Source: an uncultured Gammaproteobacteria bacterium
GTDB lineage: Bacteria; Patescibacteriota; Patescibacteriia; Magasanikbacterales; GWA2-37-8
Direction: 5' to 3'
NCBI GenBank assembly: GCA_964510885.1
Contig: CAZEDL010000004.1
Span: forward strand, 3,182-67,181
Length of the DNA stretch: 64,000 nt
Shown: one piece after another, positions 1,152 to 44,882 of the stretch
Position numbering within the stretch: position 1 is the first letter of the stretch
Layout of the letters: each line of letters begins with the position of its first letter
Made by a program: the position numbers and the translations under genes
Notes under the pieces: generated by a model
Seen by the model: only the letters and a program-made list of their open reading frames with translations
The model's database searches: none
What the model was told of the DNA's origin: nothing

Positions 1152-3374
1152 TTATCGTCCGCCGCGGAAACCGCCACCGCCGCCACGACCACCAAATCCG
1201 CCCCGCTGTGGGCGTGGACCGCGCTCAAAGGCTGGTTGTTCCTGGTAGCCTTCCGGTTTCGGCAAGAGCTGTTTCATGCTGAGGTTAATGCGGCCAAGGT
1301 TATCAATTTCTTTAACCACAACTTTGACTTTATCACCGAGCTTCAAAACATCGCTTGGTTTATTGGTGCGTGTCCAGGCAATTTCACTCACATGCACGAG
1401 GCCATCCTGGCCAGGCAACACCTGGATAAAGGCGCCAAAATCTTCAAGGCGCACCACAGTACCTTCATACGTTTCGCCCGGGGTAACTTCGTGAGTTAAT
1501 TCCTCTACCCATTTTACTGCCTTCTCAAGGCCAACCGCATCACTCGAAGTGATACAGACGCGGCCATCATCTTCAATATCAATCGATACACCGGTTTCGG
1601 CAATAATTTTATTGATCATCTTACCACCAGGACCAATCACATCACGGATCTTGTCTGGATTAATCATAACTGTCACGATGCGTGGGGCATATGGCGACAA
1701 ATCGGGTCGCGGAGATGGCAAAATTTTAGCCATTTCGGACAACAAGGTTAAGCGAGCTGTCTTGGCTTGACTAAAGGTCTGATCCACAATCTCCCAGCTA
1801 AGACCGCTGGTTTTGGTATCCATTTGGAGCGCGGTAATACCATCAGCCGTACCGGCAATTTTGAAATCCATACCACCCGGGCCGTCTTCGATATCCTGTA
1901 AATCGGTTAATACTTTCCATTTGCCATTTGCATCACTCGCAAGACCCATCGCAATTCCAGCCACCGGCTTCTTGATTGGCACACCAGCGTCCATAAGGGC
2001 GAGCGTTGAACCGCACGTCGATGCCATGGAACTTGAGCCATTGCTGCCAAGCACTTCGGATACCACGCGAATCGCATACGGAAATTCTGTTTCTGGTGGC
2101 AACATCGGTACGAGGGCTCGTTCTGCCAAAGCGCCGTGCCCGATCGCGCGATTGCCTGGGCCGCGCAGCGGGCCAGTTTCGCCATAAGTTGCCGGCGTGT
2201 CATTGTAATGATGCATATAACGCTTGGTTCCCTCTTCTTCCATCGTATCAAGCGTTTGCACATCACCCGGCGCACCAAGAGTCGCGACCGACAGCACCTG
2301 CGTGTCGCCGCGCATAAACATACCAGAGCCATGGGTGCGTGGTAACAGCGCTACTTCAATATTCAAATCACGAATATCAGTGAGCGAGCGGCCATCCAGG
2401 CGCTGCTCTTTTTTCAAAATCTGTTCGGTAATATATTTTTCGACATAAATTTTGACGCGGCCAAGCACAATCTTTTTGATTTTTTCATCGAGCCCTTCTT
2501 TGGCCGACAGCATTTCATCAACAGCTTTGCTAAAGCGCTCTACCATCGCGACGCGCTCCATTTTACCTTTCTTTACCCCTTCAAAAATCCAGTCATCGAC
2601 ATGGCTCGCTACCAGTTGAATCGCTTCTTGCTCGGTAGCGCGCAGGGTCAATTCTTTTTCATCAGGGTTAGCCGACAAATCAAGTTTCGGCTGACCGACT
2701 TCACGCTGTAATTTGGTAATAAATTCAATGAGCGGAGCGAGTTCGGCGGCGCCATATTTAAGAGCTGCGAGCACATCCTGATCAGGCGCATCTTTACACC
2801 CGGCTTCCACCATAATCACTTTGTCTGGCGTACCAGCGACCACAATATCAACATCACTCGTTTCACGTTCGGCAAATGACGGGTTGATTTTGAAGGCACC
2901 ATTCACCCGGCCAACGCGAGCGCCAGCAATCGGGCCATTCCACGGAATATTCGACAGACTTAATACCGTAGCCGCAGCAATCAATGCCGGAACCTGCGAA
3001 TCATTTTCGCCATCCACCGACAGAGCCGTCAGAATAACCTGAATATCATTGCGCATCTGATCGTTGAACAGCGGGCGAATCGCGCGATCCACCAGGCGGC
3101 CTGACAAAATCGCATCTTCACTCGGGCGGCCTTCGCGCTTGATAAAGCGGCTGCCTTTAATTTTTCCAGCGGCGTATAATTTTTCTTCGAAGTTCACCAT
3201 CAGCGGGAAAAAATCGATGCCGTCGCGCGTATTTTTACTCATCACGACGCTGGCCAAAATCACCGTATCGCCATAACGCACGGTGCATGATGCATTAGCC
3301 TGCAAGCTAAAATGGCCGGTTTCCACCGTCAGGGTGCGGCCGCCCCAGTTGAGCGACCATTGTTTGATATTCAT
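1152..3374 (-). CDS. pnp: polyribonucleotide nucleotidyltransferase (PNPase) with C-terminal Gly/Arg-rich tail
   Basis: 740 aa with two RNase PH domains, KH and S1 regions (GETYEGTVVRLEDFGAFI) and a C-terminal RGGFGGRGGGGGFRGGR tail. Confidence 0.95.
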   Translation of the reverse strand: MNIKQWSLNWGGRTLTVETGHFSLQANASCTVRYGDTVILASVVMSKNTRDGIDFFPLMVNFEEKLYAAGKIKGSRFIKREGRPSEDAILSGRLVDRAIRPLFNDQMRNDIQVILTALSVDGENDSQVPALIAAATVLSLSNIPWNGPIAGARVGRVNGAFKINPSFAERETSDVDIVVAGTPDKVIMVEAGCKDAPDQDVLAALKYGAAELAPLIEFITKLQREVGQPKLDLSANPDEKELTLRATEQEAIQLVASHVDDWIFEGVKKGKMERVAMVERFSKAVDEMLSAKEGLDEKIKKIVLGRVKIYVEKYITEQILKKEQRLDGRSLTDIRDLNIEVALLPRTHGSGMFMRGDTQVLSVATLGAPGDVQTLDTMEEEGTKRYMHHYNDTPATYGETGPLRGPGNRAIGHGALAERALVPMLPPETEFPYAIRVVSEVLGSNGSSSMASTCGSTLALMDAGVPIKKPVAGIAMGLASDANGKWKVLTDLQDIEDGPGGMDFKIAGTADGITALQMDTKTSGLSWEIVDQTFSQAKTARLTLLSEMAKILPSPRPDLSPYAPRIVTVMINPDKIRDVIGPGGKMINKIIAETGVSIDIEDDGRVCITSSDAVGLEKAVKWVEELTHEVTPGETYEGTVVRLEDFGAFIQVLPGQDGLVHVSEIAWTRTNKPSDVLKLGDKVKVVVKEIDNLGRINLSMKQLLPKPEGYQEQPAFERGPRPQRGGFGGRGGGGGFRGGR

Positions 3375-7526: not shown

Positions 7527-7665
7527 CACCGAACATCAAAAATCCTAATGACTGATATCAAAACTTGCCAAAAGCTTTTTTTCACTGTAGTATCTTAAAA
7601 CTAGGTTGTCTAATTTGAAATTAGATATTAGAATTTTTGGTACTCCTCGCGAAGCGAAGAGATAT

Positions 7666-7738
7666 GGTGGCCATGGTATAATGGTTATTACGCGAGATTG
7701 TGGCTCTCGCAATACGGGTTCAATTCCCGTTGGCCACC
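7666..7738 (+). tRNA. tRNA-His (anticodon GTG) with encoded G-1
   Basis: An extra 5' G pairs with discriminator C73, the tRNA-His hallmark. Anticodon loop TTGTGGC. Acceptor GTGGCCA/TGGCCAC. Confidence 0.85.
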
Positions 7739-7740
7739 CA

Positions 7741-7839
7741 CATTGAACCGGGGAAGGTCTGGAAACCGGGAGGTTTCCACCTCTGCCGGGGAGAGCGCAC
7801 GAGAGGGCGGAAGCCCTTTCGTGGGAGCGAAGCGACGGA
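7741..7839 (+). other. tRNA-trailer conserved structured element, copy 1 (after tRNA-His)
   Basis: Starts CATTGAACC, complementary to the tRNA-His T-loop. Core is GGGGAAGG-GGAAACC[GGGA]GGTTTCC-...-GGGC[GGAA]GCCC-TTTCGTGGGAGCG. It is followed by a direct duplicate of the tRNA 3' end. About 85% identical to the copies at 37495 and 44701. Confidence 0.7.
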
Positions 7840-7915
7840 AATTCCCGTTGGCCACCCACATTGAACCGGGGAAAGTTTGGGAAGAGATTCCTGGCAACTC
7901 CCAATAACAGTAAAA
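7840..7915 (+). repeat. 34-nt direct duplicate of the tRNA-His 3' end plus the element start, then a degenerate partial second element copy
   Basis: 7840-7873 is identical to 7722-7755. The following GTTTGGGAAGAGATTCC resembles the element hairpin region. Confidence 0.6.
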
Positions 7916-7961
7916 TCTCTTCACATAGAAGAGATTTTAAATTTAAGGACTAAACAGGTCT

Positions 7962-29223: not shown

Positions 29224-29232
29224 ATTTCTGGT

Positions 29233-29303
29233 TGCGGGAATAGGACTCGAACCTATAACCTCCGGGTTATGAGCCCGGCGAGCTGCCAGTTGCTCCATCC
29301 CGC
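29233..29303 (-). tRNA. tRNA-Met or Ile2 (anticodon CAT), elongator-type
   Basis: Reverse complement GCGGGATGG...CCGGG-CTCATAA-CCCGG...GGTTCGAGTCC...TCCCGCA. G1-C72 is paired, so this is not an initiator. Confidence 0.75.
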
Positions 29304-29318
29304 TATATATTTATTCTG

Positions 29319-37421: not shown

Positions 37422-37493
37422 GCCGCGGTAGCTCAGTGGTAGAGCGCAGCCCTGAAGAGGCTGGCGTCGTCAGTTCGATTCTGACCCGCGGCA
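37422..37493 (+). tRNA. tRNA-Phe (anticodon GAA)
   Basis: Acceptor GCCGCGG/CCGCGGC, anticodon loop CTGAAGA, T-loop GTTCGATTC. Confidence 0.85.
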
Positions 37494-37494
37494 C

Positions 37495-37620
37495 GCGCCC
37501 CCGAATCGAACGGGGAAGGCTTGGGAATCGGGAGGTTCCCACCTCTGCCGGGAAGAGCACACAAGAGGGCGGAAGCCCTTTGGTGAGAGGTTCTGATTCG
37601 CATCGGAACCAATTTTGCTT
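37495..37620 (+). other. tRNA-trailer conserved structured element, copy 2 (after tRNA-Phe)
   Basis: Begins GCGCCCCCGAATCGAAC, where GAATCGAAC is the reverse complement of the tRNA-Phe T-loop. Core GGGGAAGG-GGGAATC[GGGA]GGTTCCC-...-GGGC[GGAA]GCCC. It is followed at 37621-37634 by a duplicate of the tRNA 3' end CTGACCCGCGGCAC. Confidence 0.7.
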
Positions 37621-37820
37621 CTGACCCGCGGCACAAGACGAGTGAGTTGATTGTAATTAGGGAGTGCAATTAGTAGTTTGGATAAAATAAAAGAGCGGAT
37701 TCACATTCCTCTGTCCAAATTATTAACTACTAAATACAAACTACTCAATTACGGGGTATACTATGGTATATCCCTCAACGCTCGGAAAACCCAAATAAAT
37801 TTGGTTTTTCCTCACTAATT

Positions 37821-44620: not shown

Positions 44621-44683
44621 GAAAAGGCAACAAAAAAACAAGCTTAATAAGAAGCTTGTTTTTTTGTATACGAGTTATCTGTG

Positions 44684-44700
44684 TGGACCAATGGGGACTC
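44684..44700 (-). repeat. 17-nt direct duplicate of the tRNA-Ala 3' end (distal to the element)
   Basis: TGGACCAATGGGGACTC is identical to 44810-44826. Confidence 0.7.
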
Positions 44701-44809
44701 TCAGTCGCTACGCTCCCACAAAAGGGCTTCCGCCCTCTCGTGCGCTCTCCTCAAAAAAGGTGGAAACCTCTCGATTTCCAAACCTTCCCCGTTCGAGTCC
44801 ATATACTAG
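44701..44809 (-). other. tRNA-trailer conserved structured element, copy 3 (after tRNA-Ala, minus strand)
   Basis: Minus-strand sequence: CTAGTATATGGACTCGAACGGGGAAGGTTTGGAAATC[GAGA]GGTTTCCACC...GGGC[GGAA]GCCCTTTTGTGGGAGCGTAGCGACTGA. GGACTCGAAC is the reverse complement of the tRNA-Ala T-loop. Confidence 0.7.
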
Positions 44810-44882
44810 TGGACCAATGGGGACTCGAACCCCAAACCTTCGCCTTGCAAAGGCGTTGCTCTACCAATTGAGCTATTGGCCC
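44810..44882 (-). tRNA. tRNA-Ala (anticodon TGC) with G3:U70
   Basis: Reverse complement GGGCCAA...ACGCC-TTTGCAA-GGCGA...GGTTCGAGTCC...TTGGTCC-A. The G3:U70 wobble is the Ala identity element. Confidence 0.85.

Follow-up and report, generated by a model that had tools for sequence, protein, structure and literature searches.

Direct repeats of the 3′ part of a tRNA gene, starting in the T-loop, are the classical result of tyrosine integrases acting at tRNA genes. Mobile DNA frequently settles at such genes; the agents known to do so are kilobase-sized and bring their own integrase or Cas1, and casposons run to many kilobases. The Cas1-type casposase of Aciduliprofundum boonei needs the sequence of the T-psi-C loop and leaves a 15-bp duplication at the 3′ end of tRNA-Pro, and casposons carry terminal inverted repeats and, among other genes, Cas1 and a DNA polymerase (PMC5137440). 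Members of the IS91 family, which is characterised by a GTTC/CTTG target and a Y2 HUH transposase, insert next to a GTTC tetranucleotide without target duplication, and some of them end in GTTC beside a subterminal palindrome (PMC13181058). Here we describe a small non-coding element that follows tRNA genes in a 64,000-nucleotide stretch of contig CAZEDL010000004.1 (positions 3,182 to 67,181; the window) and in one further genome. The element is real, rare and undescribed, and its anatomy is firmly established.

The tRNA genes of the window, located with ARAGORN and Rfam, number nine, and the element core adjoins three of them (His, Phe and Ala), each time on the 3′ side and at the places given in a preliminary description of this DNA. 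An 18-mer, AGAGGGCGGAAGCCCTTT, has three exact occurrences in the window against 0.06 expected, and a gapped pattern composed of the unpaired motifs has three matches against 0.00 expected. Two covariance models, R1 and R2, were built from the element copies (per-copy scores are quoted from R2); they give the three window copies 102–107 bits and the rest of the window ≤ ~15 bits, and neither detects diverged further copies in the window or in the relatives' loci. The core is 84 nt long, with the order GAAC-GGGGAAGG, hairpin 1, CCACCT, a variable stretch, GGAGAGC, hairpin 2 and GTG. Hairpin 1 comprises 8 bp with a 3-bp extension across a 2-nt bulge and is capped by a GNRA loop; hairpin 2 comprises 11 bp and is capped by GGAA. 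The identity of the core among the window copies is 82–88%.

A further copy is present in Candidatus Magasanikbacteria RIFCSPLOWO2_02_FULL_44_11 (L009, identical to L015), after tRNA-Gly(UCC). It has the same anatomy, with GGGGGTCGAAC ahead of the core and GACTCCCGTCACCCGCTCA (tRNA positions 57–76) behind it, and its core is 86–91% identical to those of the window, whereas the proteins are only 45–53% identical. The four full copies thus available (three in the window and one in L009) have identical internal boundaries, stand at four different tRNAs and always lie in the orientation of the tRNA. Their left boundary, between GAAC and GGGG, is fixed in 4/4 copies, GAAC being the complement of GTTC at T-loop positions 53–56. 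The element had been described as lying immediately 3′ of the tRNA, which holds for the window copies but not for L009, where a strong terminator hairpin of ~45 nt stands between tRNA-Gly and the element.

Directly upstream of GGGGAAGG, each core is preceded by the reverse complement of the T-loop of its own tRNA (positions 53–60), hereafter the anti-T-loop. Complementarity to the own tRNA extends over 8 nt for His, 9 nt for Phe and 10 nt for Ala, in agreement with the 8–10 nt proposed earlier, and over 7 nt for tRNA-Gly of L009, as against only 4–6 nt to the other three carrier tRNAs. No other tRNA of the window matches the segment over a longer stretch than its own tRNA does, ties being with tRNAs that have the same T-loop. 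At the variable T-loop positions 57 and 59 the segment changes in step with its tRNA, and it mirrors the unusual A57 of tRNA-His. The His segment also matches the D-arm of tRNA-Arg over 8 nt.

Downstream of the core, all four copies carry a perfect copy of the 3′ part of the neighbouring tRNA, 16–19 nt in length. This duplicate starts at T-loop position 57 in 4/4 copies (for Phe at 59, or at 57 with one mismatch) and ends at C74, the C after the discriminator, in three copies and two bases further on in L009. Of the lengths previously reported (34, 14 and 17 nt), the 34 nt of the His copy are indeed perfect, and the other two are slightly off, at 16 nt for Phe and 18 nt for Ala. All three core-bearing tRNAs of the window have both flanks, and for the six tRNAs without the core no such 3′-end copy exists anywhere in the window. 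The anti-T-loop and the duplicate are of opposite sense, flank the structured scaffold and overlap by 4 nt (positions 57–60). The unit is discrete, conserved and tRNA-linked, with tRNA-specific flanks.

The distribution of the element was surveyed with a pattern that left both stems free, across 185,579 species genomes and the metagenome contigs of the Joint Genome Institute (JGI). The species genomes gave 11 matches, of which one is real and the others are chance matches; the JGI contigs gave eight, of which one is real and has the same sequence as the species-genome copy; the spurious matches lie in GC-rich genomes. Viral contigs gave no pattern match (a 16-mer gave 23 chance matches there), and blastn against phage and plasmid records returned no match to the element. 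A wide distribution is rejected, since the genome, metagenome and viral scans yield a single further real copy. The window organism belongs to the candidate phyla radiation (CPR), near Magasanikbacteria, and its gene order is common with a Magasanikbacteria contig at 45–53% protein identity. The element adjoins 3/9 tRNAs in the window as against one pattern match in the whole L009 genome, an unevenness that suggests lineage-specific expansion. The contigs of close relatives of L009 end before the tRNA-Gly site, and the one Magasanikbacteria species locus examined has no tRNAs.

Sites lacking the element were found at tRNA-His. The syntenic loci of four relatives, fetched via the adjoining gene for a monogalactosyldiacylglycerol (MGDG)-synthase-like glycosyltransferase (37–43% protein identity), have an identical tRNA-His 3′ end without the element in 4/4 cases, and the covariance model likewise finds no element there. 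With this identical 3′ end, the four tRNA-His loci represent empty sites, of the kind that the preliminary description had proposed to look for at orthologous tRNA genes. In three of the relatives a terminator follows the tRNA directly, and in the fourth, L050, a hairpin without a clear T-run.

We tentatively favour, at a probability somewhat short of even, the reading that the element represents a family of small non-coding, non-autonomous insertion modules of ~100–125 bp that colonise tRNA genes. A module would consist of the anti-T-loop (7–10 nt; positions 53–60), the 84-nt two-hairpin core, a variable linker and the duplicate of tRNA positions 57–C74. As RNA or single-stranded DNA, it would recognise a tRNA gene through pairing of the anti-T-loop with the T-loop, and a putative trans-acting enzyme encoded elsewhere would insert it by breaking one strand between positions 56 and 57 and the other just past the tRNA 3′ end. 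Repair would duplicate the 18 bp between the breaks, which would account for a tRNA gene that stays intact and a downstream copy that matches the local tRNA. The conserved hairpins may be the recognition structure for the enzyme, and the exact match of each anti-T-loop to its tRNA might arise by target choice or by correction.

The extent of the duplicate, from the 56/57 junction to just past the tRNA, fits a fixed target duplication of 18 bp. The insertions at other tRNA 3′ ends of this lineage, the constraint on the hairpin stems and the casposase precedent, all described below, likewise speak for the module. Because it is absent from the four relatives and from nearly all sequenced CPR genomes, the element is dispensable; it is also patchy, expanded in one genome, found at different tRNAs in each genome and present in a tandem array, all of which are marks of a selfish module. 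Among the options put forward previously, a tRNA-targeting miniature mobile element is the best fit, given the empty sites, the different tRNA in L009 and the tandem copy at tRNA-His; we infer the mobility itself, where the breaks fall, that the anti-T-loop guides the module and what form the intermediate takes, whereas the anatomy, the matching of each copy to its tRNA, the empty sites, the rarity, the conservation between distant genomes and the lack of a nearby mobilising gene are observed.

Several observations weigh against an insertion module. Among the ~65 open reading frames (ORFs) of the window there is no Pfam match to a transposase, integrase, Cas1, TnpB or reverse transcriptase. 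The ends of the module between the tRNA copies are not conserved, the left spacer measuring 1–8 nt, or ~45 nt with the terminator in L009, and neither inspection by eye nor a repeat finder detects terminal inverted repeats between the tRNA copies, unlike in ordinary DNA transposons. The hairpin in L009 looks like the own terminator of tRNA-Gly, with the module, including the duplicate, downstream of it; a module placed beyond the native terminator would imply that the duplicate did not arise by target duplication but is part of the module, templated or selected. The element is present in two genomes only, and no pair of close strains with one filled and one empty site was seen; mobility is deduced from comparisons of distant genomes. 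The core similarity between genomes could just as well stem from purifying selection on a functional RNA.

Such a function would be that of a cis-acting tRNA-trailer RNA, co-transcribed with the tRNA, in which the precursor chooses between the cloverleaf and a fold closing on the distal 3′ copy; it might regulate maturation or stability, or provide a reserve 3′ end. We regard this explanation as unlikely, although several features speak for it. On the tRNA strand the loops are GNRA in every copy (hairpin 1: GGGA, GGGA, GAGA and GGAA; hairpin 2: GGAA in all four), and the stem changes comprise one compensatory pair and three G-U pairs, with no A-C. The compensatory pair, A-U to G-C at columns 19/32 of hairpin 1, had been noted before and is real. 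Paired cells make up 98.9% of the stem alignment of the four sequences, and the stems are more conserved than the loops and linkers, with 5/44 variable columns in stems as against 12/31 in unpaired regions (Fisher p=0.01). The linker and spacer next to the duplicate vary greatly, yet the duplicate itself is perfect. Minimum-energy folds of the tRNA, element and duplicate together (fold Z-scores of −3.5 to −8.4) pair the T-loop with the anti-T-loop and the 5′ acceptor strand with the distal copy for Ala, Phe and L009, and in a helix predicted to join GGGAG of the core to the 3′ strand of the T-stem in the duplicate, Phe has A-U in place of G-C. In the three window copies no terminator-like hairpin lies between the tRNA and the core.

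Other results argue against a trailer RNA. The covariation is not significant with four sequences (67/500 shuffles reach the observed score), and the case for a conserved RNA fold, with one compensatory pair and three G-U changes, is weaker than was claimed. In part, the alternative fold follows trivially from the duplication, and the minimum-energy fold of the His unit does not close the acceptor on the distal copy. Terminator-like hairpins occur at different places in different copies: before the element in L009 and before the duplicate, within the linker, in Phe; the Ala copy has a T6 run after hairpin 1. Together these argue against an obligatory co-transcript of tRNA, element and duplicate, and a common transcript is not conserved. 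The absence of the element from the relatives and from nearly all sequenced CPR genomes, described above, also speaks against a trailer RNA.

Scars or miniature derivatives of integrase-type elements, with the core as the conserved attachment-site flank of one family, constitute another explanation, which we consider quite unlikely. The direct repeats of the tRNA 3′ part starting in the T-loop and the tandem copies at tRNA-His are what it would lead one to expect, and two loci of the same lineage, a serine-recombinase island at tRNA-His and a duplicate of a tRNA-Leu 3′ half, agree with it. Against it, the internal boundaries are the same in 4/4 copies and no coding remnant is present, whereas random deletion scars would differ; the unit of 110–130 bp is too short to circularise as duplex DNA; the sequences left of the duplicate (GACGGA, GACTGA, GTGTGA and TTTTGC) are unlike the tRNA half-site GGTTC; one core with four tRNA specificities is unlike integrase families; and the window contains no integrase. 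The repeats had been called a classical integrase signature, a description that is not supported, given the lack of an integrase in the window, a unit too small for an excised circle and the lack of a half-site left of the duplicate.

The relatives' loci yield observations of their own. In L050 (240–9774), a large serine recombinase (Resolvase, Recombinase and Zn_ribbon_recom domains) is encoded together with Phage_CRI, Peptidase_M78 and ABC-transporter genes, and this island abuts the 3′ end of an inverted tRNA-His, the locus that holds the element in the window. In L046 (8968–9504) and L048 (9357–9887), a GC-rich ORF of 176–178 amino acids without a Pfam match lies between tRNA-His and the MGDG-synthase gene, and its composition looks foreign. 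In L012, a tRNA-Leu(TAG) 3′ half that begins at the anticodon loop and includes the 3′ end is found at 2540–2610 (minus strand), 9 nt after an intact tRNA-Leu; its acceptor strand matches the L048 allele, and it looks like a remnant of replacement or integration at that tRNA. In this lineage, tRNA 3′ ends are insertion hot spots, which is in keeping with an insertion module.

The geometry of the two tRNA-specific segments raises the further alternative of a guide-RNA gene, in which the anti-T-loop (53–60) and the sense segment (57–74) would lead an RNA-guided recombinase or nuclease, encoded elsewhere, to both strands of the tRNA gene, in the manner of the bridge RNAs of IS110 elements or the omega RNAs of TnpB. 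The opposite sense of the segments, their position on either side of the scaffold and their 4-nt overlap are as this explanation would have them; the guide-like segments differ from tRNA to tRNA around a conserved scaffold, and the near-universal GGTTC directly 5′ of the sense match could act as an invariant flanking motif. Yet the window contains no IS110-type, TnpB, IscB or Cas gene, no guide or omega-RNA family of Rfam matches, and terminator-like hairpins would cut the guide off in Phe and prevent read-through expression in L009. A guide gene beside its own target and without cargo would have no obvious purpose; compared with bridge RNAs, the 18-nt segment is far above the guide length and a second (donor) loop is missing. 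We hold a guide-RNA gene to be very unlikely.

An intron-like element of the T-loop was considered as well, with the anti-T-loop as an internal guide across the 56/57 junction, the core as a small splicing unit, catalytic or protein-assisted, and the distal copy as the 3′ exon; in trans, such an RNA could swap the 3′ end of a tRNA for its own. Its complementarity to positions 53–56 and 57–60 has the order expected of an exon-aligning guide, and in the predicted folds the 56/57 junction falls inside the helix so formed, with the distal copy completing the acceptor stem. It is nevertheless highly improbable: the upstream tRNA is complete and splicing unnecessary, the 84-nt core is far below the size of any self-splicing intron, the pair at position 56, the putative 5′ splice site, is C-G and not U-G, the duplicate is preceded by A in three copies and by C in Phe but never by G, no Rfam intron or ribozyme matches even at E ≤ 10, and terminators lie within the putative intron in L009 and Phe.

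The most novel proposal is that the RNA programmes itself by reading the tRNA gene on both strands at the T-loop, the coding strand through the anti-T-loop and the template strand through the sense segment 57–74. It would then either direct its own insertion, as an RNA-guided miniature mobile element that targets tRNAs, or act as a T-loop intron or trans-splicing unit with a spare 3′ exon. We think this unlikely; if true, bacteria would harbour a hitherto undescribed class of RNA-guided elements linked to tRNAs. What probability remains is left for explanations not considered here.

Known families were searched for directly. Rfam 15 at gathering thresholds detects only tRNAs in the whole window, and at E ≤ 10 on 7640–7960 the hits on the element are noise below 12 bits, so a known RNA family is rejected. 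Literature searches returned no described equivalent, in line with the preliminary description, whose author knew of no element with this architecture. A primer-binding site for tRNA-primed reverse transcription, which would lie on the opposite strand, is also rejected, as the copy reads in the tRNA sense and lacks a following CCA. Inspection by eye of hammerhead and box C/D motifs revealed no full box set in the element. A tRNA or transfer-messenger RNA (tmRNA) pseudogene is rejected because neither the tRNA model nor ARAGORN scores the element, despite short resemblances (17/21 to tRNA-Ala). A search with NCBIfam of the ten ORFs without a Pfam match gave no mobilising gene; the two unannotated ORFs that adjoin the Phe and Ala copies show no relation to one another, and the neighbours of the L009 copy, which are copper-resistance genes, include no recombinase match.

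The features of the three window loci are collected in Table 1.

Table 1. Features of the tRNA-His, tRNA-Phe and tRNA-Ala loci, in window coordinates
Feature	Position	Strand	Basis or remark
tRNA-His(GTG)	7667..7739	+	ARAGORN; Rfam tRNA 62.8 bits; intact, CCA not encoded
Anti-T-loop ATTGAACC, reverse complement of tRNA-His 52–59	7742..7749	+	8 nt; other carriers 4–5 nt; mirrors His-specific A57
Core copy 1	7746..7829	+	R2 107.4 bits, fold, alignment
Copy 1, hairpin 1 (loop GGGA)	7755–7782	+	
Copy 1, hairpin 2 (loop GGAA)	7798–7823	+	
Variable linker GGAGCGAAGCGACGGA, hairpin 2 to duplicate	7824..7839	+	Alignments
tRNA-His duplicate AATTCCCGTTGGCCACCC, 18 nt from position 57 through discriminator + C	7840..7857	+	18/18 identical
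Partial second tandem copy	7858..7900	+	Repeat finder, direct reading; covariance model 6.8 bits only
12-bp hairpin with T-rich tails on both strands, after His array	7911..7939	+	Terminator scan scored minus strand; plus strand stem, then AATTT
tRNA-Phe(GAA)	37422..37494	+	ARAGORN, Rfam
Anti-T-loop GAATCGAAC, reverse complement of tRNA-Phe 53–61	37503..37511	+	
Core copy 2	37508..37591	+	R2 105.2 bits
Extra terminator-like hairpin in Phe linker, then AATTTTGC	37589..37610	+	
tRNA-Phe 59–74 duplicate TTCTGACCCGCGGCAC, 16 nt	37619..37634	+	19/21 over longer span; from 57 if A58 read as C
tRNA-Ala(TGC)	44809..44882	-	ARAGORN, Rfam
Anti-T-loop GGACTCGAAC, reverse complement of tRNA-Ala 53–62	44791..44800	-	10 nt, 100% complementary
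Core copy 3	44711..44794	-	R2 105.6 bits
tRNA-Ala 57–74 duplicate GAGTCCCCATTGGTCCAC, 18 nt	44683..44700	-	100%
Strong terminator-like hairpin after Ala duplicate	44630..44667	-	

At tRNA-His, the repeat of the tRNA 3′ end runs on past the 18 nt of the duplicate unit, with 34 nt perfect and 44 nt at 93%, to position 7883. The partial and degenerate second copy reported earlier is present there, and comprises an anti-T-loop (7860–7867), GGGGAAAG and a shortened hairpin GGAA-GAGA-TTCC (7880–7891), after which the similarity is lost; GGGGAA also recurs in it, following the 3′-end copy and the anti-T-loop. In this tandem array the tRNA-proximal copy is intact and the distal one truncated or diverged. 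The linker of the His copy is conserved with that of the Ala copy and different in the Phe and L009 copies. The hairpin that follows the array is probably the terminator of the tRNA-His unit. Another hairpin, upstream of tRNA-His (7644–7662), has the 9-mer GCGAAGCGA in common with the element linker (7826–7835), and the relatives have a leader hairpin of different sequence at the same position before tRNA-His.

The anti-T-loop of the Phe copy is part of an 18-nt inverted repeat (78%) with the 3′ part of the tRNA. The arms of the extra hairpin in its linker, which is followed by a T-run, resemble the T-loop of tRNA-Phe (GGTTCtGATTC) and the anti-T-loop (ATCgGAACC); this hairpin could be a fossil of the pairing between the two, or simply a terminator. 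Between the Phe duplicate and tRNA-Pro (37665–37745), imperfect inverted repeats of 12–14 nt, 46–50 nt apart, and a tandem 14-mer may represent another small repeat element. In the Ala copy, the 5′ motif of the element, GGGGAAGGTTTGGAAATCGAG (44770–44790), is identical at 17/21 positions to tRNA-Ala 39–59, GGCGAAGGTTTGGGGTTCGAG (44824–44844), a resemblance that hints at a derivation of hairpin 1 from a T-arm.

Eight of the nine tRNA genes of the window encode the discriminator and one C only, and the full CCA is encoded only in tRNA-Met (29229–29304). The window also carries clusters of type-IV-secretion-like pilins. Logan contigs of the window organism (run SRR16481186) are short and all lie inside the window; one (L064) starts at window position 37476, exactly C56 of tRNA-Phe and the proposed insertion point, and another (L063) ends in the T-stem of tRNA-Leu(TAG). 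These ends in T-arms may stem from the assembly graph or from heterogeneity of the population. The contigs L053 and L057 encode an AI-2E transporter protein identical to that of L055 and L060, and probably represent one Magasanikbacteria species with them; two extra small ORFs (113 and 218 amino acids) next to the gene, on its downstream side, distinguish the two pairs, a strain-level insertion or deletion unrelated to the tRNAs.

A non-coding unit of ~100 bp behind four tRNAs, with two matches of opposite sense to each, points to target choice by base pairing with the T-loop, which every tRNA possesses. If true, this would give a minimal parasite a new and safe route of spread through a very small genome, and might amount to a new principle of programmable targeting; a functional trailer RNA, if that were true instead, would reveal an unknown layer of tRNA maturation control in CPR bacteria. 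Under either reading, the conserved core is a handle for finding the partner enzyme.

The element shares some property with each of several known systems. As with integrase-type elements and prophages, the insert lies between direct repeats of the tRNA 3′ part and leaves the tRNA intact, it can occur in tandem, and in this lineage tRNA 3′ ends are hot spots; the element differs in having no integrase, in being far too small, in combining one core with four specificities and in lacking a common half-site. A group I intron has a catalytic core of P3–P8, a U-G pair at the 5′ splice site and a terminal G, whereas the element has an 84-nt core with no U-G, no terminal G and no Rfam intron match. 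With the IS91 and IS200/IS605 families of single-strand (HUH) elements and their miniature derivatives it shares the lack of inverted ends, the subterminal hairpins and a strict orientation. Its core abuts GAAC (GTTC on the other strand) in 4/4 copies, but its other flank ends in ACTC, AGTC, AATT or AAGC, not GTTC. Neither family makes a target duplication (PMC13181058), and the resemblance to IS91 breaks down over the duplication of 16–19 nt and the transposase, no Y1 or Y2 enzyme having been found in the window.

In elements of the IS200/IS605 type, a short internal guide beside a hairpin pairs with the target and so recognises it. The present element has two hairpins, and GAAC and 4–6 further bases are complementary to the T-loop; however, the target lies 19–65 nt upstream, with a copy of the tRNA end intervening, and neither a Pfam match to a Y1 transposase or TnpB nor an Rfam omega-RNA match exists in the window. 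The bridge RNA of IS110 is structured and has two short guide segments that pair with opposite strands of one target and overlap at its core, a geometry also seen in the two tRNA-specific segments of the element; the window has no DEDD recombinase, and the element has no donor loop, one segment of 18 nt and a position beside the matched site. Like tRNA-related short interspersed elements (SINEs) and target-primed retroelements, the element is small, non-autonomous and structured, with one precise and one variable junction and a direct target duplication, and it is placed where read-through from the tRNA promoter could transcribe it. It differs in that no reverse transcriptase was found and the truncated His copy keeps the 5′ part, the opposite of usual target-primed copying; SINE-like retrotransposition is not known in bacteria.

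By analogy, the closest precedent is the casposase. A casposon duplication overlaps the tRNA by 5 bp only, whereas the element is ~100 bp long, non-coding and without inverted ends and has a segment complementary to the T-loop, and the window gives no Pfam match to Cas1 or DNA polymerase. The terminator in L009 argues against a target duplication in the element. If there is one, both would insert at a tRNA 3′ end with an unusually long direct duplication, that of the element, at 18 bp, starting inside the T-loop and so following a similar logic in a different register.

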